64,000 nt of DNA from Deinococcales bacterium (lineage in GTDB: Bacteria; Deinococcota; Deinococci; Deinococcales; JAAFIG01): contig JAYWGM010000028.1 in assembly GCA_043778225.1 (NCBI GenBank), positions 32,001 through 96,000 on the forward strand, in the 5' to 3' direction. The position numbers and the translations under genes were made by a program. Below, in pieces: positions 11,950 through 52,469 of this stretch (the stretch's first letter is position 1; each line of letters begins with the position of its first letter). Under the pieces are notes generated by a model, which saw only the letters and a list, made by a program, of their open reading frames with translations, did not search any database and was not told where the DNA came from.

Positions 11950-13464
11950 TTATTTGCGGATTCGCACCAAGTCGTTGAGGACTCCATCCAGACCATTGGT
12001 GACTGTTAGCGTTTGCACTTTTTCGATGATTCGCTCGAGTGCCTCGAGTTCTTTGAGGCGCAATGCCACAGGGTTGTCTTCCATCACTTTGGCAGTATTT
12101 AACAAATTTCGCGTGGCAGCCGTTTCTTCACGGCGACGAATCAAGTTGGCTTGGGCAGATTTTTCGGCTTCGACCACTTTGCTTAAAATGGTTTTCATTT
12201 CGCCTGGCAAAATAATGTCTTTGATACCGACATTCTCGAGTTGCAAACCCAGATTCTCGAGTTTAGAACGCACAATTGCTGCAATATCCAAATCCAGTGC
12301 GGTTTTATCCTCGAGTAAGCTGTCTAAGGTGCGTGTGCCGATGACACCACGCAAAGCAAATTGCAATTCTTTATACAAAAATGCCACAAAATCGGTCAGT
12401 TGGGCAAAGGCTTTGAGTGGCTCGAGAACACGGTAGCCAGCCGCGAGGTTAATCCGCAGCGCAACTTTATCCTTGGTCAGAATTTCTTGCCCGCTGACTT
12501 CGAGGGTTTGTAAACGCAAATCGGTGGCAGCCACCCGAACACTGCGACCTGTTTTCCAAAAGGTGTGCAGTCCGACTTCTAAGGCAGACTCGAGTTTGCC
12601 ATCCAAAAACAGCGCACCTTGGTGATATTCTGGCACAAGCGCATACTCAATCAGTGGCTCAAGCGGCGTGCCTTTGGCAGCTTTGGCAAGCGCAAGCGGC
12701 ACGTTCAGGTTAGCGGTCTCGAGCATTTCAACTCGAGTAGCCGCATCGAGCATCAAAAGCGTATTGCTGTTGGGCGCAAAAACCGCCACAATTGCCGCAC
12801 TGCGGCGAACGATGGCAATTTCAGTATCGCCCAATTCAAGTCGGGTCAATTGCACCAACCACGCTGGATTGGCTGCCAAAATCGCTTCGGCAAGCGGCTT
12901 TGGCAGTGGCATCGCCACACCTTGTAGCGCCACTACAATTTCCTCGAGTCCACGCCAGTAAATACGGCGCTGCCCACTTTGCACCAAGTCTTGTACCACT
13001 CCGCCGCGAGTCACGACTGCAAATTGCAAGGCAGCAGGGGCAACTTCGACAAAAAATTTATTCAGCACAACTTTATTTCGCACTTGTGCCAAACGCATTC
13101 CAGCCTCGATCATCAAGCCATGTTCGATTTTGAATAGCTCAATTTGCATGGCAGCAAAACCTTTCCAGTACAAAACTTGGCTGTTTGGCGCAACCACCTC
13201 AAGAATTTCATCGCCTCGAGAAACCAGTGCCACTTCAAGTGCGCCCGTTTGCACCACCGCAAAGTGCTTGTTGACCACATCGGAACGCCGCTCGAGTAAA
13301 AAATTGGTCAGTTCGTGTTCAAATCGAGTCTCGAGGGCAAAACGCTGGACAGCATAACCTGTGCCATAAACTGTATTCGCACCAGCCTCGAGAATCCGAA
13401 CAAAACGCCCATGACGGGTCAGAATACCTTTTTCCGTGTCTTTAATCGCAAAATTTTGAATCAT
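11950..13464 (-). CDS. slipin family (SPFH/band 7) protein with an extended N-terminal repeat region
   Basis: DLRLQTLEVSGQEILTKDKVALRIN, IKDIILPGEMK and RREETAATR...MEDNP.ALRLKELE. Start moved to ATG 13464 (RBS AGAGG) because the upstream extension overlaps a non-coding element. Confidence 0.9.
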   Translation of the reverse strand: MIQNFAIKDTEKGILTRHGRFVRILEAGANTVYGTGYAVQRFALETRFEHELTNFLLERRSDVVNKHFAVVQTGALEVALVSRGDEILEVVAPNSQVLYWKGFAAMQIELFKIEHGLMIEAGMRLAQVRNKVVLNKFFVEVAPAALQFAVVTRGGVVQDLVQSGQRRIYWRGLEEIVVALQGVAMPLPKPLAEAILAANPAWLVQLTRLELGDTEIAIVRRSAAIVAVFAPNSNTLLMLDAATRVEMLETANLNVPLALAKAAKGTPLEPLIEYALVPEYHQGALFLDGKLESALEVGLHTFWKTGRSVRVAATDLRLQTLEVSGQEILTKDKVALRINLAAGYRVLEPLKAFAQLTDFVAFLYKELQFALRGVIGTRTLDSLLEDKTALDLDIAAIVRSKLENLGLQLENVGIKDIILPGEMKTILSKVVEAEKSAQANLIRRREETAATRNLLNTAKVMEDNPVALRLKELEALERIIEKVQTLTVTNGLDGVLNDLVRIRK

Positions 13465-13483
13465 ATAAAACCTCTGGGGTGAA

Positions 13484-13559
13484 AGCGACCATGCCCGATA
13501 GCGACCCAGCCCGTCAGGTGCATCTTTAGGGTCAAGAAGGTGCGTGCTTATGGTCAAGA
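13484..13559 (-). repeat. two nested copies of a 38-nt structured element
   Basis: Outer TCTTGACCATAAGCACGCACCT|ATCGGGCATGGTCGCT is interrupted by inner TCTTGACCCTAAAGATGCACCTGACGGGCTGGGTCGCT (13500-13537). Confidence 0.85.
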
Positions 13560-13625
13560 AAGGGTTAAAAGGTTAAAAGGTTAAAAGTTAAGGGCAGAAC
13601 AGTTACTTTTTCCCTTTTTCTTCTT
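13559..13625. repeat. short tandem 8-mer repeat (AAAAGGTT)n with a degenerate complementary arm
   Basis: gggttaaaaggttaaaaggttaaaagttaa followed by a pyrimidine-rich tract; related to 50293-50369. Confidence 0.6.
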
Positions 13626-13850
13626 GCCAACCTTATCTCGAGTATTTCGAGTTTCGCATGAGCTTTTGGGCGCGTGTTCACTGGCTTGAAGGCGGCTCGA
13701 GCCGACGTTCACTCGAGGGTGGCGGTTCAGGTGGGCGAATCGGTGCTTTGTGCCGATAGGAGACTCGAGGCTTTTGGCTGTACACCCTTAAAGGGCAAGC
13801 AACTCGAGACAAAGCTGGTGGTGCTTGGGTCAACGATTTTGCTTATCGTT

Positions 13851-13960
13851 TGGTGATTTATGGGAGTCGAACCCATTACCGTCAGTTTATAAGCGACCCT
13901 GCCCGCGAGGTGCGTCTTAGGGTCAAGAAGACTGATGCTCTAACCAGTTGAGCTAAAACC
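13851..13960 (-). ncRNA. tRNA-like module A (Ile-UAU-like once a 37-nt anticodon-loop insertion is removed)
   Basis: GGTTT TA GCTC AACTGGTTA GAGC A TCAGT CT [37 nt] TAT AA ACTGA CGGTA ATGGG TTCGACT CCCAT AAATC A CCA; acceptor stem only 5 bp. Confidence 0.8.
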
Positions 13961-13961
13961 T

Positions 13962-14066
13962 TGGTAAAAGATGCAGGATTTGAACCTGCTTGCCCGTTTG
14001 GGCGCTCGAACAGTCGTTTGTGCGACTGCAACCCGAGTGCGTTTATCCAGTATCCGCCAATCTTTT
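13962..14066 (-). ncRNA. tRNA-like module B (class II, Leu-like body, hairpin in place of the anticodon loop)
   Basis: AAAAGAT/ATCTTTT 7-bp acceptor plus ACCA; D arm GCG..TGG..CGC; CTCG/CGAG stem enclosing CAGTCG-CACAAA-CGACTG; variable arm GCCC-AAAC-GGGC; T arm GCAGG-TTCAAAT-CCTGC. Confidence 0.8.
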
Positions 14067-14067
14067 G

Positions 14068-14150
14068 TTTGATGAAAGGAATCGAACCTTTGACCTCTCG
14101 AGTGGTCAGTCAAATGACCAGCCAAGCGCTCTACCCCTGAGCCACATCAA
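14068..14150 (-). ncRNA. tRNA-like module C (class I body, hairpin in place of the anticodon loop)
   Basis: TTGATG/CATCAA acceptor; D arm GCTC-AGGGGTA-GAGC; CTTG/CGAG stem enclosing TGGTCA-TTTGAC-TGACCA; variable loop AGGTC; T arm AAAGG-TTCGATT-CCTTT; no encoded CCA. Confidence 0.8.
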
Positions 14151-14360
14151 TTTATCTTTGTGCGATATGCAAGGTAAGCAGGGCTTATTTGCATCAGCGA
14201 GGCTATGCAAACCTCTGACCACGGCACGTGATGCAAAAAGTGTACTCGAGAAGTCAAAAAAGTCCATGACTGATTTGGCTTACGCCAATGTGCCAATCGT
14301 CACGTTTAGCAAGCTGGTTTTTTCACGTCTGACAGAGGTAGTATACCGTATACTCGAGCC

Positions 14361-17111
14361 ATGCTTGAACGATTTTTTAGCTTGTTGGCTTGCAGCATAG
14401 GCTTGGTGGCTTGTCAGGACAAACCAATTTTAATTGTCAATCCGCCAGACAACAGCAGCCCAGCCTTACTTTGGTCAAATGCTGCCACATGGGGCGGGAG
14501 TGTACCAAGCGACAACAGCAGTGTGGTCATTCCAGACGGCAAACGCATTGTTTTAGATGTCAATGCCAATGTCAAAAACATTACCGTACTTGGAACGCTC
14601 GAGTTTAAGGACACCAACCTCAATCTTCAAACCGATTATATTGCTGTCCATGGTGCAATGCGCTTAGGCAGTGCGATTAACCCATTTGCCTCCAGAGCCA
14701 CCATTACCTTAAAAGGCAGCAATACCGAAGACATCATGAAGATGGGGTCTCGAGGTATTTTGGTGATGGGCGGCGAATTGTCGGTCTACGGCACAGCCCC
14801 CAAAGTTATCTGGACTAAATTAGCCGACCACAGCGCGGCTGGAGCTTTAAGTCTGAGTTTACTCGAGAATACAGCTTGGAAAACTGGCGACCAGATTGTG
14901 ATTGCACCGACCGATTTTTACAACGATGGAAATTTCCAAAAATCCCCAGAGACCGAAATGCTCGAGGTACAAAGTGCCAACGGCTCGAGTATCGGCTTAA
15001 AAAATGCTTTAAGTGGGGCGCGTTGGGGTAAATTGCAGTATGCCACCGAAAGCGGCATGAGTTTGAGTCAAGGCAGTATTACGCTGCCAAGTACATCGGC
15101 TCGAGACACGGGTGGCACTACCATTCCAACAGTGCTGGATGAACGGGCAGAAGTTGGCAATGTCAGCCGCAACATTGTGATAGAAGCTGCCGACGACAAC
15201 CTCTGGAAAGAACAAGGATTTGGCGCTCAGGTCATGATTATGGGCGAAACTGCCAAGACCCATCTCGAGGGCATCGAACTACGGCGGGTTGGGCAAGCTG
15301 GCAAATTTGGGCGTTATCCGGTGCATTTTCATAATTTAAGTTACGACAGCACGGGCAAGGAATTAGCCGATGCAAACGCCACCCTCAAAAACTCGAGCAT
15401 TTGGAATTCAAGTCAACGTTGTGTGGTGATTCATGGCTCGAACGGTGTTAAAGTGCAAAATAATATTTGCTACAACATCAAAGGTCATGCAATTTTTCTC
15501 GAGGATGCAGTCGAGCGGCGCAACTTAATCGAAAATAATCTGGTATTGCGGGTACGCGAGCCTAAAAAAGCCCAAGCACTTTTGAAGCACGAAATTGGCG
15601 AAGCCTTTGGCGGTACGAGTTCTGGCTTTTGGATTGTTAATCCTGACAACACGCTGCGTGGCAATGTCGCCGCCGATGTTGTTGGGCATGGGTACTGGTT
15701 GGCTTTTCCAAAGACCACGCTTGGAGTCAACAACAACGTCAAGCTCAATCCGTACGCTGACCAAGGAAAAATCATAGGCGCTCGCCCTGAAAGAATGCCG
15801 TTTGGGATTTTTGAAAACAACGTGGCGCACAGCATCCAAGACAATGGTGTGTTTATAGATGCCGCTCCAACCGATGCTCGAGACGCAAGTGGCAACCAAA
15901 TTGGCGAAACCGAAGGCGCAAAGTATGTCCCCATGCAGGGAGGTAAAGACTGGGATTACGATTTTAGCAAGTGGGAACGCTTTACTTTGGCTAGAGTCAC
16001 GACCTATAAAACAGGTTCGTACTGGGGCGGTGGTGGCGGCATCTGGAATCGTAACAGTTACCCCAATTTTCTCGAGTGGGTTTCGGCAGACCATCAGGGC
16101 GGTTGGTTCGCTGGGGCTGGCGACGATGGCTTAATTGCCCGTAGCCTGATGGTTGGCACAAGCCTCAATATTGGTGTGGCTCGAGCCAGCACCCAGCCTT
16201 TGGCAGCCTTAGCGAGTTATCACAGCACTTTTGACATGACCCAAAACATTATCCTCGAGTTTCCATTTGCCCAAGGCACGGAAAACAACCCAAGTGGTGT
16301 ATTTATGACTGCCGATTATTACATCACACCAGTAGACAAAGGCTTAAAACGCAATCCAGACAACAAGTTAGTCAATGCTCACCCCGGACGACGTGTACAG
16401 CCTTTTACAACCGAAAACTGGGCTTTGGCTGGCGCACTTTGGGATTACAACGGCTATTGGGGGAAGGCAGGCAATTATTGGGTTTATGACCAAGCCTTCT
16501 TTACATCTGGCACAAGCTGCACCCAAGTTGCACCAGTCGGCAAAAACGGCGCAAGTTGTGTTGGTCCATACTATGGCATTGGCGATTTTGTAACCAATTT
16601 TGACACCGACCGCTACGGTTTTAAGCACCCCATAGAAGCTACTCGAGTTGACTCGAACGGCACAACTTTGGACACTTGGAGTGTGGGCGACGGCAATACT
16701 GCCCCAAAATTGGGCAATATGCGCCATTTTGCAGCCGTCAAGAATGGGCGCTTTATGCTGCGTTTTCCTAAGCGCTCGGGTTCTGGGTACGAAATTCCAC
16801 AGCGTTTTGAATCCACCGTGGATAACTTTCTGAGTGCCAGCGACGAAACTTTATTGGCGGTACAGTTTGATGGCACAAAAAACCCAAGCATTAGCCTCGA
16901 GAACGGCACAGAGACTCGCGCAATCAACTCGAGTGGGATAAATCTGGCAGCCGTAACAGCCGACTCGAGTGGCAAAACCTTTTTCTTTGACCGTGGCAAT
17001 AACTTACTTTGGCTGAAATTAAAAGGTGGGCTGACCAAAAACCCCAATTGGAATCAAGACCCGAAATCCAACGACCAGTTGTATCAATCTATGCGGCTCG
17101 AGATTAAGTGA
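14361..17111 (+). CDS. G8 domain / parallel beta-helix lipoprotein (CEMIP/TMEM2-like architecture)
   Basis: Lipobox LVAC; WSNAATWGG G8 start; RAEVGNVSRNIVI, GQAGKFGRYPVHFH, RCVVIHGS, GHAIFLED and GFWIVNPDN motifs. Confidence 0.85.
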   Translation: MLERFFSLLACSIGLVACQDKPILIVNPPDNSSPALLWSNAATWGGSVPSDNSSVVIPDGKRIVLDVNANVKNITVLGTLEFKDTNLNLQTDYIAVHGAMRLGSAINPFASRATITLKGSNTEDIMKMGSRGILVMGGELSVYGTAPKVIWTKLADHSAAGALSLSLLENTAWKTGDQIVIAPTDFYNDGNFQKSPETEMLEVQSANGSSIGLKNALSGARWGKLQYATESGMSLSQGSITLPSTSARDTGGTTIPTVLDERAEVGNVSRNIVIEAADDNLWKEQGFGAQVMIMGETAKTHLEGIELRRVGQAGKFGRYPVHFHNLSYDSTGKELADANATLKNSSIWNSSQRCVVIHGSNGVKVQNNICYNIKGHAIFLEDAVERRNLIENNLVLRVREPKKAQALLKHEIGEAFGGTSSGFWIVNPDNTLRGNVAADVVGHGYWLAFPKTTLGVNNNVKLNPYADQGKIIGARPERMPFGIFENNVAHSIQDNGVFIDAAPTDARDASGNQIGETEGAKYVPMQGGKDWDYDFSKWERFTLARVTTYKTGSYWGGGGGIWNRNSYPNFLEWVSADHQGGWFAGAGDDGLIARSLMVGTSLNIGVARASTQPLAALASYHSTFDMTQNIILEFPFAQGTENNPSGVFMTADYYITPVDKGLKRNPDNKLVNAHPGRRVQPFTTENWALAGALWDYNGYWGKAGNYWVYDQAFFTSGTSCTQVAPVGKNGASCVGPYYGIGDFVTNFDTDRYGFKHPIEATRVDSNGTTLDTWSVGDGNTAPKLGNMRHFAAVKNGRFMLRFPKRSGSGYEIPQRFESTVDNFLSASDETLLAVQFDGTKNPSISLENGTETRAINSSGINLAAVTADSSGKTFFFDRGNNLLWLKLKGGLTKNPNWNQDPKSNDQLYQSMRLEIK

Positions 17112-29670: not shown

Positions 29671-31275
29671 CTATGGTGCGTCTATCGCTCGAGCCGCATT
29701 TAACAATCCAGCCCCACATTTCTCGAGCGGGCAAACCTCGAGCGCGGTGCGTGAAGCTCCAGCCAGAATTTTATTTTTAATCTCGAGCGGTGTCGCACTT
29801 GGGTTTATGGCTTTGAGCATCGCGGCAACCCCACTTACCCAAGGCGCAGCAAAAGACGTACCCATAAATAGGTTATAACCAAAGCCATCTGCGCCACTCG
29901 AGTTAAACGAAGCACTTTGGGTCACACCGGGCGCAACCAAACTGACCCAAGCACCCGGCACACTAAAATCTGAGGCAAAGTATTTTGTGCCATTCCATTT
30001 GACACTGCCAACGGCAATAATCGGTAACTCGAGGCTGTAGGCGGCTGGGTAATTTGGCACTGTGCCTCTGTTCCCCGCCGAGGCAACCAGCACGATTTTG
30101 GCTTGGGTCACAGCTTCTATAACTTGCTTAACAATACTCGAAGGTTGCTGAGTTCCCAGCGAAAAGTTAATCACATCTGGGGCTTGACTAATCGCATAGC
30201 AAAGACCTTCGATGACATCTATGCCTTTACATTTTGTGGTTTCATCGCAGACTTTGACGGGCAAGATTTTTGCTCCATCTGCGCCATTTGGTCCACTCTG
30301 ATTATTATTTCGAGCAGGCAGCACCCCAACTTGCCAAAATTGGGTGAAGTTCGTGCCAATTTCTGAATCCCGCGCCGCAATAATGGCGGCGACTGCCGTA
30401 CCGTGTCCGACTAATTTTCCAGTGGCATCTTTGGCATTATCGCCAGTGTCGGACTCGAGTTCAATTGCCAAGTTGGTGCGTTCGGTGGTGAAATTTTTTC
30501 CTGCTAACAGATTGGAGTCTACAAGATTAAAAAGATTCCTAAAATCGTAATGTTTAGAAACTCCAGTATCCAGTACCGCCACTCGAGGGGAGCGGTTTTG
30601 CATATTGGGCAGGAGGGTTTTCCAGTGCGTATAAGCGCGATCTAGCTCAAGGGTGGTAAATTCGTTTTTATGTTCTACGGTAGGTCCTGAATCGGAATAA
30701 CTTGCTCCTGTGCTAATTGTGTGTGGATTTGCTTCAAGAGTTTCAGGTATGTCACTGGCTGTGTCTACCGCTCGAGAAGTGCTGCCTTGTTGCTCGAGAA
30801 CAGCTAGGGTTTTACTACAAATACCTGTTGTTGAAGGATCGGCTGGTTTGAAGTCTACTAGGGTCATGCCTCCACGTTGAGCAGCCTGTGTGGCTTTACC
30901 TAAGTCCAGATTTTCCCTAAAAGTTACCAATGCTTGGTCTGCGAAATAATTATCTGGACTCGCAAGGATGTTTAAGTCTTTGCTACTTGCGAAGTCTTGA
31001 GGCGAGTTGGTTACAACAACATCATAAGAACCTGCTTGTATGTTTGGTGCTTTCACTTTTAGTTCTGTGGTTTGAAACGAATTAACACTGACTGTTTGAT
31101 TGCCAATCATAACTATGGAACTGCTCGAGAAACCTTTCCCAGTAATAATAATTTCTTCTAATGGTGCAACGAATCGGGGTCGTACTTTCTGAATCTCGAG
31201 TAGGGCAGGCGGACTTGTAGGATTACAAGCAACACAGAATGCTAGGGTACTGAGGAATAGTAAAAAGCGTTTCAT
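29671..31275 (-). CDS. S8 subtilase lipoprotein with an N-terminal IPT/TIG domain
   Basis: Lipobox CVAC; triad motifs VAVLDTG, HGTAVA and GTSFAAP; IIITGKGF IPT-like segment. Confidence 0.9.
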   Translation of the reverse strand: MKRFLLFLSTLAFCVACNPTSPPALLEIQKVRPRFVAPLEEIIITGKGFSSSSIVMIGNQTVSVNSFQTTELKVKAPNIQAGSYDVVVTNSPQDFASSKDLNILASPDNYFADQALVTFRENLDLGKATQAAQRGGMTLVDFKPADPSTTGICSKTLAVLEQQGSTSRAVDTASDIPETLEANPHTISTGASYSDSGPTVEHKNEFTTLELDRAYTHWKTLLPNMQNRSPRVAVLDTGVSKHYDFRNLFNLVDSNLLAGKNFTTERTNLAIELESDTGDNAKDATGKLVGHGTAVAAIIAARDSEIGTNFTQFWQVGVLPARNNNQSGPNGADGAKILPVKVCDETTKCKGIDVIEGLCYAISQAPDVINFSLGTQQPSSIVKQVIEAVTQAKIVLVASAGNRGTVPNYPAAYSLELPIIAVGSVKWNGTKYFASDFSVPGAWVSLVAPGVTQSASFNSSGADGFGYNLFMGTSFAAPWVSGVAAMLKAINPSATPLEIKNKILAGASRTALEVCPLEKCGAGLLNAARAIDAP

Positions 31276-34133
31276 GATTTTACTCCTTGTTGCGATAAGT
31301 AATTGTTGATTTCTGCATGGTATGCCATAAAAGACTCGTTGGCTGCGAATGGTTTAATTTGCTCGAGCCAGACAGTAGAATCTGTTTTAAGAACTTGACC
31401 TACTTCAAGTAAGTTGAGTAGTGCCAATAATTGATTTTCTGAATCGTGTAAAGAGTTAGCTTTTTCAAGTGCCAATTCATAATGCTCTTTAGCAGTTGTA
31501 TAATCTGCACGATAATAATGAGTTACACCAATGTTTAGGTGCGCTCGAGCTTCAGCCCACGGGTCGTGAAGAACTTGATTTAGGTGCAAGGATTCTTCAT
31601 ATGATTTGAGTGCTTTTTGAAAGTTTGCGTTTCGAGTATGAAATTCCCCTAAATTATTAAGCGTGCGAGCCATTCGGGTTTCATCACCTAGTTTTTTAAA
31701 CAACATAAAACTACGTTGATGTATCTCTTCTGCTCGAGGATGATTGCTGTGCGTATAAGTCACAGCTAAATTCATTAAACTATCAGCTATTTTCACATCT
31801 TCCTCGAGCGCTTGGCGGATGCTTAGGCTGGCTTCAAAGGCTTGTGCTGCTTCAACAAATTTCTTCTCGAGCCTATAAATCGTGCCTTGGATATTGAGCG
31901 CATCAGACCGTGCCAATTGGGCAGCGCTGTAACTTAGCCCCTCGAGTGCCGTAAATGCTTGATTGACCAAGACTTGCGCTTCCTCGAGTCGGTGCATTTT
32001 CAGTGCCAATAAGTTGGCTCGAGCTAACCATGCGTTGCTGCGTAAAACAGAGTCAGTCACACTACCTTCAAGTATCGCCAATTTGTCGAGCGTCTCGAGG
32101 GCAGCCTCGTGTCGTCCGTATCGCTCGAGTGCCGAAGCACGTTCGGTCAGGGCTTGGAGGCGTTCGGTGGCGTTGCGGCTGTGCTGGTCGGCGTGTTCAA
32201 ACCACTCGAGGGCGGCGGCTAAGTCACCGCGAATGCTGTGCTGTTTACCTGTCTCGAGAAACGCCAAGAGCATTTTGGCAGTGTCGGTGTCTTCCCAAGC
32301 GTTTACGGCAGCCAGCGCATGAACCGCCGCTTGGTTAGGTTGTAAAGCTCGAGCCGCCCGCAGGTGCAGAATTTGTTTTCTGGCTGGGCGAATCTGATGT
32401 AAGACCACTTCGCGGATTAAATCGTGCTTAAAATGCGTGCCATCGGTTTCTAAATGCAGCACATCGGAGACTGCCAATTCATCGAGGTTTTGGCTGATTT
32501 CCTCCAAACTGCGCCCAGAGACGGCACGTAAGATGCCAATGGTACTGCCGTCACCCAGTAGGGCGGCAACCTCGAGCAATTGCTGGGCGGTTTCGGGCAG
32601 ATTGGCTAAACGACTTTTTACCAAGTCGTGCAGTCGGCTGCTGTCTAAATTGGTGCGTAGTAGCTCGAGCAGATAAAATGGGTTTCCACCGCTTTTTTTG
32701 TGCAGCAGCGCCGTATCGGTGCTTTGTCCAAATGAAAGGCTCAGGTCAGTCACGGCTTTGGGGGTCAGTCCTTGAAGCTCGAGTTTGATGCCAAGCTGTT
32801 CTCGAGTTATCAATTCTAAAAGGTCGTGTAAATCGCTGCGCGGTGTTTCGGTATCGCGTAAAGTTGCCAGCAGCAGCAGCCCATGGGGGTTGGGTTGGTG
32901 CATCAGGTGCAGCATCAATTCTATCGATGTTTTATCTGCCCATTGCAAATCATCCAAGATTAAAACCGTGGTTTGGGTCGGATGGGTTAAAAGCGCCGTT
33001 AATGCCGCAAAAAGATGTTCTTTGCTCGGCTCGAGTTGGGTACTGCTGAGGCTGTCTGGAACAAATGCTGCCAGCGCTTGTTGCCATAACCGATTAAAGT
33101 CAGCCAAGCTGCGTTGGGTTAAAGCCAGTCTGACCAAGCGCTCAAACAACCCAAGTGATACCCCAGTAGGGGCTGCCACACCAGACAGCACCCACAAATT
33201 GGCGGTTTCTTGGGCGGCTTCTTGGGTTAATCGGGATTTGCCGACACCCGGTTCACCGGTCAAAAGCACCAAGCGGGCTGTTCCTTGGGCGGCTCGAGCC
33301 AGTTCGATGCGAATCAATTGTAATTCGTATTCCCGTCCAAACAGTGGCACGTTGGTTTCCTTGGCTTGCACAATTGCTTTGACTTGGAATTCTTGTTGAA
33401 TCGCAGCCAAACAACCTGCTGCATCACCTCGAGCCAAAACTAAAGCATCTCGAGTCGGACGACTTGGACCAAGTTCGAGTTCTTCTTGTAAACGCCGCTC
33501 GAGCTTAGAAAAAGCCGTTTGCGCCCGAATTTCACGCTTTAATGCCCCAGCCGTCAACATCAGTAAGCGAGTGGCATCTTCGCGGGGTGGCAAATGCTGA
33601 CTTTGGGTCTTCTCGAGTAAACTTAAAGCAGTTTCAAGGTTAAGTTGCTGCAATTCAAACCTTGCTAAACGCCAACTCAGTTCGGCATGGATTTCCTCGA
33701 GTTTTTCGCGCCAAGTCAGCAGCCACTCTTCAAAATCTGCCCCAAAGCCATCATCCCACTCTGGGAGGCGCACCCCCTCGAGCAATGCTCCACGGTAAAG
33801 CTCGAGCGCTGGCTGCCAATCGGTGGCTTGGTTGGACTCGAGGGCGGCGGTAAAAACTTCTATATCGCAATAAAAACCCTTTTGTAAAGACAGGGTTTCG
33901 TTGTCGCCCTCGAGCCATTTTTTGAGAACATCGCGGATGCTGATTCTGGCTGCCGAAAGGCTGTTGAGTGGGTCGGTGGCGCTCGACCACAGCAAATGTG
34001 CCAAGTCGCGCCGTGTGGCTCGCCCCTCGAGGGCTAAATATGCCAGCACCAGCATCGGTTTGATGCCCAGTTTTATTGCCCGTCCGCGAAGCTCGAGACG
34101 TGGTGTACCTAGCAAATGGAGTGCCAGTGTCAT
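31272..34133 (-). CDS. SARP/BTAD-AAA ATPase-TPR transcriptional activator
   Basis: LHLLGTP wHTH start; ALELYRGALL..FEEWL BTAD; GEPGVGKS; LDDLQWAD; GGNPFYL; C-terminal TPRs. Confidence 0.9.
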   Translation of the reverse strand: MTLALHLLGTPRLELRGRAIKLGIKPMLVLAYLALEGRATRRDLAHLLWSSATDPLNSLSAARISIRDVLKKWLEGDNETLSLQKGFYCDIEVFTAALESNQATDWQPALELYRGALLEGVRLPEWDDGFGADFEEWLLTWREKLEEIHAELSWRLARFELQQLNLETALSLLEKTQSQHLPPREDATRLLMLTAGALKREIRAQTAFSKLERRLQEELELGPSRPTRDALVLARGDAAGCLAAIQQEFQVKAIVQAKETNVPLFGREYELQLIRIELARAAQGTARLVLLTGEPGVGKSRLTQEAAQETANLWVLSGVAAPTGVSLGLFERLVRLALTQRSLADFNRLWQQALAAFVPDSLSSTQLEPSKEHLFAALTALLTHPTQTTVLILDDLQWADKTSIELMLHLMHQPNPHGLLLLATLRDTETPRSDLHDLLELITREQLGIKLELQGLTPKAVTDLSLSFGQSTDTALLHKKSGGNPFYLLELLRTNLDSSRLHDLVKSRLANLPETAQQLLEVAALLGDGSTIGILRAVSGRSLEEISQNLDELAVSDVLHLETDGTHFKHDLIREVVLHQIRPARKQILHLRAARALQPNQAAVHALAAVNAWEDTDTAKMLLAFLETGKQHSIRGDLAAALEWFEHADQHSRNATERLQALTERASALERYGRHEAALETLDKLAILEGSVTDSVLRSNAWLARANLLALKMHRLEEAQVLVNQAFTALEGLSYSAAQLARSDALNIQGTIYRLEKKFVEAAQAFEASLSIRQALEEDVKIADSLMNLAVTYTHSNHPRAEEIHQRSFMLFKKLGDETRMARTLNNLGEFHTRNANFQKALKSYEESLHLNQVLHDPWAEARAHLNIGVTHYYRADYTTAKEHYELALEKANSLHDSENQLLALLNLLEVGQVLKTDSTVWLEQIKPFAANESFMAYHAEINNYLSQQGVKS

Positions 34134-47429: not shown

Positions 47430-47583
47430 GGTCTATGATACCAAATTGTGTTAATCAGTCGCGTATTTTGACTGATTAACCGACTAAAAGGAGTAACAAC
47501 GAAACCGAATTAACGCCTGAACGGCAGTTTGACCGTTTTTTGGTCAAACTAGAGTGATTAAGTTAATTCGGTATGATACCCCA

Positions 47584-52061: not shown

Positions 52062-52469
52062 CTAAACATCTTTTTGATTCTCGATGTACTGCTTCACAAT
52101 ACTTAAAGGCGCTCCACCAACCGTGGATACGAAGTAACTATTTGTCCAGAGTGTGGGTAATCTACTTTTTAACCACTCGAATTCTTGTCTTAAATACCGA
52201 CTGGAACGCCCTTTTAATTGTTTTACAACTCGGTGGATTCCAAATTGTGGGTCTACCTCGAGTAGAATATGCACATGATCAGGCATTATCTCGAGTACCA
52301 GAATCTCGCACTGCATCTCTGCACAATTCTCTCTGAGAATCATTGCTAGTCGTGTTTCCACACCATTGACAAGCACTTTACGACGATACTTTGGACAGAA
52401 CACAACATGGTACTTACAAGAGTACGTGATATTGTTATTTGACTTGTACTGCACATGGCTATTCTTCAT
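52062..52469 (-). CDS. tnpA: IS200/IS605 Y1 transposase TnpA
   Basis: YHVVFCPKYRR, HUH motif PDHVH, KGRSSR, LWTNSYF and YIENQ; TATAAT 7 nt upstream of ATG 52469. Confidence 0.95.
   Translation of the reverse strand: MKNSHVQYKSNNNITYSCKYHVVFCPKYRRKVLVNGVETRLAMILRENCAEMQCEILVLEIMPDHVHILLEVDPQFGIHRVVKQLKGRSSRYLRQEFEWLKSRLPTLWTNSYFVSTVGGAPLSIVKQYIENQKDV

Follow-up and report, generated by a model that had tools for sequence, protein, structure and literature searches.

Mobile DNA as small as 36–39 nt is barely documented, and the small dispersed repeats (SDRs) of Nostoc are its main bacterial precedent. SDR4–6 of Nostocaceae, which Elhai et al. are said to have described in 2008 (Genome Res 18:1484), are reportedly 21–27 nt long. 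SDR5 is reported to enter HIP1 between its third and fourth bases (PMC4390886), and according to PMC5861425 no SDR-like repeat was found outside Nostocaceae. We analysed a 64,000-nt stretch of a Deinococcales draft genome (G000), hereafter the window, which corresponds to positions 32,001–96,000 of contig JAYWGM010000028.1 in assembly GCA_043778225.1 (G000:C28:32001-96000). An initial annotation had noticed in it three minus-strand copies of a hairpin of 37–38 nt, here called the mini-element, and had proposed that it was either a micro-intron or a miniature mobile element with a CT core. The comparison of filled and empty sites reported below makes it very probable that the mini-element is a mobile DNA repeat and not an intron. 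The second proposal was right in essence, with numerous empty and filled sites and with CT or CTN on both sides of the core at many junctions. A literature search of main texts returned no description of the mini-element and no SDR-like repeats in Deinococcota; the family would represent an independent group of very small mobile repeats in another phylum.

Among described systems, the mini-element is most like the SDRs of Nostocaceae and the repetitive extragenic palindromic (REP) sequences. Like the SDRs, it is shorter than 40 nt, dispersed, without coding capacity, confined to one lineage and inserted precisely into other repeats and into copies of itself, and in both cases the host genome also carries a hyper-abundant palindrome and short tandem repeats. 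The two, which are likened by description only, differ in phylum (here uncultured Deinococcales) and in size (36–39 nt against the 21–27 nt quoted for SDRs). In contrast to the HIP1 habit of SDR5, a single one of 113 near-full-length copies lies in the register CT|CGAG of CTCGAG. With REPs and bacterial interspersed mosaic elements (BIMEs), the mini-element shares its size, an imperfect hairpin with conserved unpaired tails, a copy number in the hundreds, a mostly extragenic location, tandem arrays and the role of a landing pad for IS110-family insertion sequences (ISs). It differs from them in having no GTAG tetranucleotide, the tails being TCTTG and CGC-N. True GTAG-REPs coexist with it in the genome and are among its targets, and no gene for a REP-associated tyrosine transposase (RAYT) with the mini-element on both sides was found. 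To our knowledge, REPs neither nest in one another nor insert into the loops of hairpins. The GC clusters of yeast mitochondria are likewise palindromic, non-autonomous mobile DNA of about 40 nt with rapid turnover and merging or nesting, an example being the 42-nt palindromic cluster GC42 (PMC4478555); they are organellar, eukaryotic and GC-rich in an AT-rich genome, and no relatedness is implied.

Window copies and structure of the mini-element

The three copies and their nesting were found at 13484-13928 of the window exactly as first described. One copy disrupted an anticodon loop, and two are stacked in the leader of a slipin gene. The features concerned are the following.

13892..13928, minus strand: copy 1, 37 nt, in the anticodon loop of tRNA-like gene #3, where ARAGORN calls an intron
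13500..13537, minus strand: copy 2, 38 nt, which interrupts copy 3 in its inner loop, directly after GCACCT
13484..13559, minus strand: copy 3, the host copy split by copy 2, at the edge of a AACCTTTT-type tandem repeat
13561..13590, minus strand: short tandem repeats of the AACCTTTT type, on which the mini-element has landed repeatedly
13852..13962, minus strand: tRNA-like gene #3, host of copy 1, called by ARAGORN as tRNA-Ile(tat) with a 37-nt insert

In a profile search with nhmmer, the two halves of copy 3 were matched at 13559-13537 and 13501-13484. The sequence pattern proposed for the element had two matches in the window, compared with 0.00 expected from 100 shuffles. As first noted, removal of copy 1 leaves the 7-nt anticodon loop C-T-T-A-T-A-A (ARAGORN, introns allowed). 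A spacer of 19 nt separates the nested pair from the slipin ATG at 13464. The ambiguity of the boundary, with CT ahead of the insert and CT at its end, is real. Arrays of the AACCTTTT type with at least three units number 42 in the genome.

The draft assembly comprises 4.03 Mb in 107 contigs with 48.7% G+C, and its completeness of 89% applies to all gene absences given below. The strict pattern matched 66 times in the whole draft. An nhmmer profile built from these strict-pattern copies gave 105 matches at E ≤ 1e-5, and relaxing the threshold to 1e-3, 1 and 10 raised the number to 130, 166 and 214, respectively. Flank statistics were based on the 113 near-full-length copies (profile start ≤2, end ≥37, E ≤ 0.1), which represent 85 distinct sequences; the commonest sequence occurs unchanged seven times. 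The mini-element measures 36–39 nt and has no coding capacity. It also forms tandem arrays with a period of 38 or 39 nt and nests in itself up to a depth of three copies, 14–16 of the 113 copies being nested. Such arrays and nesting, like the unchanged copies, point to recent activity. When the 130 matches were compared with a crude map of open reading frames (ORFs), in which 91.5% of the genome was coding, 102 were intergenic. Between co-directional neighbours, 21 copies lay in the sense and 36 in the antisense orientation, and hence no sense-strand bias was observed.

Read 5' to 3', the mini-element consists of TCTTG, an outer stem of 5–6 bp, an A-rich bulge of 6–7 nt on the 5' side only, an inner hairpin with GCACC and GGGC on either side of its loop, the returning strand of the outer stem, and a CGC followed by one variable base. 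All 85 distinct copies begin with TCTT, and the last base is T in 57, C in 18, A in 8 and G in 2. Within the outer stem, pair 3 is CG in 77 copies, AT in 3 and TA in 3; pair 4 is CG in 79 and TA in 4; and pair 5 is CG in 41, AT in 31 and TA in 3. Pair 5 is paired in 77 of the 85, compared with a shuffle mean of 41 and a value reached by none of 2000 shuffles, a figure that overstates independence because the copies are related. The compensating subfamilies of the outer stem are plain despite this kinship, so that the stem covariation seen between the window copies holds across the family. The conservation of the inner hairpin was likewise borne out, as GCACC...GGGC is intact in 70 of the 85 distinct copies, with loops such as TGAC, TCAC, TTC, TAAC, TATC and TTAC, among others. 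What is conserved is structure, not sequence.

Distribution, empty sites and landing sites

To describe the distribution, genomes were searched with the pattern TCTTGACC-N20-26-GGTCGC, and the reversed pattern served as control. The pattern matched 100 times in G000, compared with 0 for the control. Matches were present in every one of the 18 other family genomes sampled, which represent five genera, with 2–195 per genome. Among 22 genomes from four other families of the order, 17 had no match and five had one match unlike the mini-element, which equals the control level. A scan of species-representative genomes yielded at least 115 loci, and 49 of the 115 listed carry a full-length copy. Titles were available for 80 of the scan loci: the 40 with full-length copies were all from metagenome-assembled genomes (MAGs) of Deinococcales/Deinococcota, and none of the 40 from other taxa was full-length. 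The mini-element is lineage-specific.

The same sites were then compared between congeners. The anticodon loop of gene #3 is an uninterrupted 7 nt, with copy 1 absent, in all five syntenic congeners (G003, G005, G006, G004 and G001), and the nested pair is absent from the slipin leader in six of six congeners (these five and G007); in G004, the flank in the slipin leader is uninterrupted. Since the same sites are empty in the DNA of congeners, the window copies are DNA insertions, and neither window site is a conserved home of the mini-element. The empty alleles that the initial annotation had proposed to look for are thus present at all three window sites in congeners, and further ones exist as paralogs in G000 itself.

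Empty-site paralogs inside G000 were found for 83 copies. Under a strict filter, which required a junction-spanning alignment with at least 92% identity and dropped same-contig matches within 120 nt, 59 copies remained, corresponding to 51 unique events with an insert of 36–45 nt (38 nt in 16 events and 39 nt in 22). For one miniature inverted-repeat transposable element (MITE) family, MITE-A (145 nt, inverted ends), eight aligned copies are empty and six are filled at two fixed sites. The window contains an empty copy of a second family:

47436..47575, minus strand: MITE-B, empty copy; elsewhere filled at up to three fixed spots

For the REP family GGACAGAC..GTCTGTCC, 14 members are empty and eight are filled. 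As an observation on the hosts, MITE-A and MITE-B (about 140–145 nt, inverted ends) are related, share their internal architecture and have the same two hot spots for the mini-element; they break many contigs, and a further copy lies, e.g., at G000 C99:42128-42276.

The hosts of the 113 copies were classified by a rough sort with regular expressions, as follows.

Tandem with another copy: 22 copies
Inside MITE-A or MITE-B: 20 copies
Inner loop of another copy: 14 copies
GC-rich REP-type hairpin loops: 10 copies
AACCTTTT-type tandem repeats: 7 copies
Other: 40 copies, of which by eye about half are further REP loops

In all 16 cases of nesting, the point of entry lies directly after GCACCT or one base further on, and the nested copies enter the loop variants GAC, CAC, ATC, TC and CGC. 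The location of junctions was further evaluated by joining the flanks and folding them as DNA. A hairpin loop with a stem of at least 4 bp held the junction at 32 of 101 unique sites, compared with 75 of 600 random CT sites, and loop location was therefore about 2.5 times more frequent than for the controls. Of the 113 copies, 36 have CT immediately ahead of TCTTG, and in 38 a single base stands between the two. The statement that the element sits in loops after CT thus describes a real tendency, but it does not hold as a rule.

Junctions were analysed in 42 informative events, nine of the 51 having been dropped because of more than eight equivalent positions or more than four mismatches. The junction could be placed at C|C in 24 events, at C|T in 20 and at T|T in 16, whereas shifted controls gave about 7, 11 and 10, respectively. 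A single universal target dinucleotide was considered and rejected, as none fits all 42 events. The identity between insert and target at the junction is 0–5 nt, usually 2–3 nt (CT, CTG, CTC or CTT). Many junctions have CT or CTN on both sides of the core, and where the mini-element ends in CA or CC, the 5' flank ends likewise. The junctions look like a short variable duplication or crossover core around a unit of 35–36 nt, TCTTG...GGTCG. The fixed-length target-site duplication of DDE-type MITEs was not observed, given an identity of 0–5 nt and inserts of 36–45 nt.

Candidate movers and competing explanations

Taken together, the distribution and the filled and empty sites indicate that the mini-element is likely a non-autonomous, very small, lineage-specific mobile DNA element that depends on a mover acting in trans. 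With hundreds of copies, many exact pairs of empty and filled sites, nesting and 19 genomes, the question of the mover becomes approachable with a short list of candidate genes. Copies are added or removed at the DNA level; they land after pyrimidine-rich CT, CTN or CC sites and favour the loops of DNA hairpins, including the inner loop of the mini-element itself, REP loops and anticodon-loop DNA. The mechanism rated best, by analogy with REP transposases, is a tentative one that we hold somewhat less likely than even. The copies would move in trans as folded single-stranded DNA through a structure-recognising enzyme of the HUH/Y1 type, which, like TnpA-REP of E. coli, would cut at sites resembling C|T. 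As described in PMC3333891, TnpA-REP binds and needs the folded REP; it cuts single-stranded DNA at a C|T that is essential and that may lie to either side of the hairpin at a variable distance, and models for REP excision and rolling-circle amplification exist. Cutting of this kind would account for the conserved fold with varying stems, the conserved unpaired tails, the one-base variation at the end, the tandem arrays and the preference for single-stranded loops.

A candidate mover is a RAYT-like gene of 222 codons at C32:27219-27881, which has the HUH motif HVHG and a C-terminal Y...NP region. Related genes are present in 16 of 18 family genomes, compared with six of 22 from other families. 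In G000, G006 and G018, a copy of the mini-element is located 24–60 nt upstream of the RAYT-like gene, and G015 has one within the gene; these are 4 of 20 loci, and none has copies on both sides. Because the gene is accompanied by GTAG-type REPs, these neighbouring copies may merely sit in REPs. As a separate observation, two inverted GTAG-type REPs are located in the variable coding linker of the gene itself, and the linkers of its orthologues are repeat-rich and of different length.

Several points weigh against this account. Mobility itself is read from patterns of presence and absence in the sequences. No enzyme is tied to the mini-element, and the RAYT-like gene goes with the separate GTAG-type REPs. 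Inspection of G000 for genes bracketed by inverted copies revealed no convincing case. C|T fits only 20 of the 42 junctions while C|C fits 24, and the match of the 3' end to the 5' flank resembles a brief duplication or a crossover core more closely than it does a fixed HUH end. In addition, the orientation of copies showed no association with the sign of GC skew at 5, 10 and 20 kb, a measure that may be uninformative in a draft of 107 contigs.

Two other transposition enzymes were considered and rejected. One is encoded in the window:

52074..52427, minus strand: IS605-type tnpA (Y1 HUH transposase), followed by tnpB; the only PF01797 match at E ≤ 0.001 in G000

This TnpA is present in a single copy, has no mini-element beside it in the stretch of the window that was read, and belongs to an IS with ends that appear unlike those of the mini-element. 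An IS607-type serine resolvase was rejected on the basis that G000, at its 89% completeness, contains no PF00239 match.

Another class of recombinase is linked to the mini-element by position. Within the family there are 17 IS110 loci, 13 of which were examined. The only IS110-family gene of G000 lies in a 1163-nt IS at C26:~30440-31610 (locus L166), which occupies the loop of the most deeply nested member of a stack of three copies in a MITE-B, at the nesting position and with CT on both sides. The left junction ACCT followed by TGTAAGTT was found at 10 of the 13 loci, in eight genomes, and two loci belong to other IS110 lineages without the mini-element. The loci inserted in the mini-element (L166, L169-L176 and L181) are 1163–1270 nt long, and all of them are in its inner loop. 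When the 5' non-coding regions of the 10 copies were aligned, they showed GCACC(T/C), a small hairpin and CC-N4-5-GC, and the reverse complement of the last segment equals CT plus the rest of the occupied loop in all eight copies with both junctions, which cover five loop variants. The 5' RNA of these ISs is therefore a putative bridge RNA with a target-binding loop that appears to have followed the variants of the landing pad. This interpretation draws on IS621, for which PMC11208160 describes a CT core in target and donor, separate guides for the left and right sides of the target, and REPs as the targets used in nature. A search of the 5' region of the L166 IS against Rfam gave no family match.

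The likeness to IS621 and ISPpu10 concerns this IS110 parasite and not the mini-element: both junctions have a CT core, the target is a stem-loop repeat, and a guide in the 5' RNA matches the target. It differs from them in that the target is the loop of the mini-element and in that the guide has diversified with the loop variants. ISPpu10 is itself described as a REP-targeting IS110 element with a bridge RNA (bioRxiv 10.64898/2026.03.19.712850). An IS110/bridge-RNA parasite of the mini-element is thus newly seen. The result is a three-layer selfish stack, with IS110 in the hairpin and the hairpin in REPs, MITEs and itself, in which a bridge-RNA guide appears to be caught re-programming to follow variants of its landing pad.

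This raises the alternative that the mini-element moves by CT-core site-specific recombination of the IS110/bridge-RNA kind, with its ends joined at CT and exchanged with a target CT by the resident IS110 recombinase or a relative. We consider this unlikely. In its favour, the IS110 of G000 and the 10 of 13 loci sit at the exact nesting position with CT junctions, the core is often bordered by CT or CTN at both ends, and in seven of the 10 IS copies a mini-element is found at GG-CT-GCC inside the putative donor-binding loop. IS621 provides a precedent with its CT core and REP targeting (PMC11208160). However, IS110-family genes were found in nine of the 19 family genomes and the mini-element in all 19. 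G011 (92% complete, 61 strict matches) and G006 (94% complete) have no IS110, although MAGs lose repeats. The donors of IS110 elements are double-stranded circles, and a circle of 38 bp would be sterically implausible in view of the stiffness of DNA. Moreover, copies enter many loop variants as well as unrelated CT sites, whereas each bridge RNA fits one variant, and by eye the putative donor guides match the ends of the IS and not those of the mini-element. A broader version, in which the mini-element would be a minimal donor of CT-core exchange (through the IS110 bridge-RNA clade or through an enzyme class not yet linked to repeats) and/or the tRNA-like copy would be removed from RNA, appears equally improbable to us. 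If the minimal-donor version were true, this would be the smallest known element moving by CT-core exchange chemistry.

An explanation without any mover is less probable still. The mini-element would then be a functional hairpin, such as a terminator, an RNA stabiliser or a protein-binding site, that was spread by recombination or gene conversion of its host repeats. About four-fifths of the copies do lie in other repeats able to carry them, and several of the identical copies amount to no more than segments of MITE copies. However, unique sites are hit as well, including the tRNA-like gene and many REP loops from different families; hosts that are unrelated to each other show insertion with single-base precision; insertion typically produces self-nesting and tandem arrays; and the orientation relative to genes is mixed.

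The explanation that survives least is the proposed micro-intron, removed from RNA by an endonuclease and an RtcB-type ligase so as to repair the tRNA-like RNA and the slipin leader, which we regard as most improbable for a dispersed and mostly intergenic repeat with sites that are empty in the DNA of congeners. Exact removal does give a 7-nt anticodon loop, and G000 encodes RtcB. The likeness to archaeal bulge-helix-bulge (BHB) micro-introns is that a short insert in the anticodon loop restores the loop on exact removal, and nested introns are known among archaeal tRNA micro-introns. The differences are that there is here no BHB fold and no EndA, and that the insert is a genome-wide DNA repeat at sites empty in relatives. 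In the predicted RNA fold, no bulge-helix-bulge was found, and a 5 x 7 internal loop separates the anticodon stem from the hairpin of the mini-element. The tRNA-splicing endonuclease domain PF01974 had 0 matches in G000 (89% complete), the RNase P RNA and tmRNA of G000 carry no copy, and Rfam at E ≤ 1 over window positions 12500-16500 returned only tRNA and a sub-threshold YrlA match, with no group I or II intron or ribozyme. Moreover, 36 of the 57 copies that could be scored for orientation are antisense. The spread is genome-wide and REP-like, without preference for slipin or tRNA-like loci, which is an outcome that the initial annotation had itself named as a refutation. The idea that ordered excision gates slipin translation found no support, and the slipin leader lacks the element in six congeners.

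The initial annotation had suggested looking for joined RNA, and the joined sequence does occur in metatranscriptome contigs. Contigs from two metatranscriptomes, X5 and X7, which are not RNA of the G000 strain, skip exactly 37 nt (13890->13928), in X5 in two contigs with a summed depth of 47.7 and in X7 in one contig with a depth of 32.2. However, these contigs carry features of relatives, and the joined sequence equals the DNA state of five congeners. Within the neighbouring gene, 6 letters and 16 gap letters set the X7 contig apart from the window, a kind of difference also shown by the congeners. In X5, the filled form is present too, as a contig of 144 nt (depth 31.5, three differences) that retains the insert. 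The joined and filled X5 contigs have different 3' trailers, and one joined contig swaps 73 window bases for 92, indicating that they come from different strains. Since five genomes have the joined form in their DNA, the joined contigs are no evidence for splicing, nor do contigs exclude it. The RNA-library depth at the nested junction is about 5. Two DNA runs, possibly the source of the stretch, are the only public runs in which nearly all of it is present. For annotation, the case cautions against taking an insert for an intron on the sole ground that a perfect tRNA is left after its removal.

Neighbouring genes and further observations

Gene #3 is part of a trio of tRNA-like genes upstream of the slipin gene. 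The remaining features of this neighbourhood are the following.

13963..14151, minus strand: tRNA-like genes #2 and #1, with additional hairpins, other than the mini-element, in the anticodon arm
11950..13464, minus strand: slipin (SPFH/Band_7) gene, 504 aa, PF01145, E 2.8e-26

The Rfam tRNA model aligned over gene #3 with 39.9 bits and a 40-nt gap in the anticodon loop. Without its insert the gene reads Ile-UAU, and its first two acceptor pairs are mismatched. The trio is syntenic upstream of the slipin gene in the five congeners, where the orthologues of gene #3 are called Thr, Arg, Ser, Thr and Arg; the anticodons in the six genomes are TGT, TCT, TGA, CGT, TCT and TAT, while the body of the gene is kept. 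In genes #1 and #2, hairpins of the anticodon arm were gained or lost, and the acceptor stem of gene #1 shows a compensating change. The trio are not ordinary tRNAs. ARAGORN found 68 ordinary tRNA genes in G000, including three CAT and two Ile-GAT genes, and gene #3 is an accessory gene. The slipin gene is a bystander.

Another accessory tRNA array, at G000 C19:9212-9477, contains two members, called Leu-GAG and Arg-TCT, with inserts of 40 and 50 nt in the anticodon arm that are not the mini-element. The trio is adjoined by a gene on the plus strand (14361-17111) for a 916-aa protein with G8 and CEMIP beta-helix domains. The RtcB gene of G000 (C80:47009-49219) is matched in three pieces within one frame of 947 codons, with about 1.1 kb between profile positions 263 and 278, and this interruption is probably an intein. 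Finally, CTCGAG occurs 24,877 times in the whole genome, i.e., once per 162 bases or 26.7 times the expectation, and is visible throughout the window.

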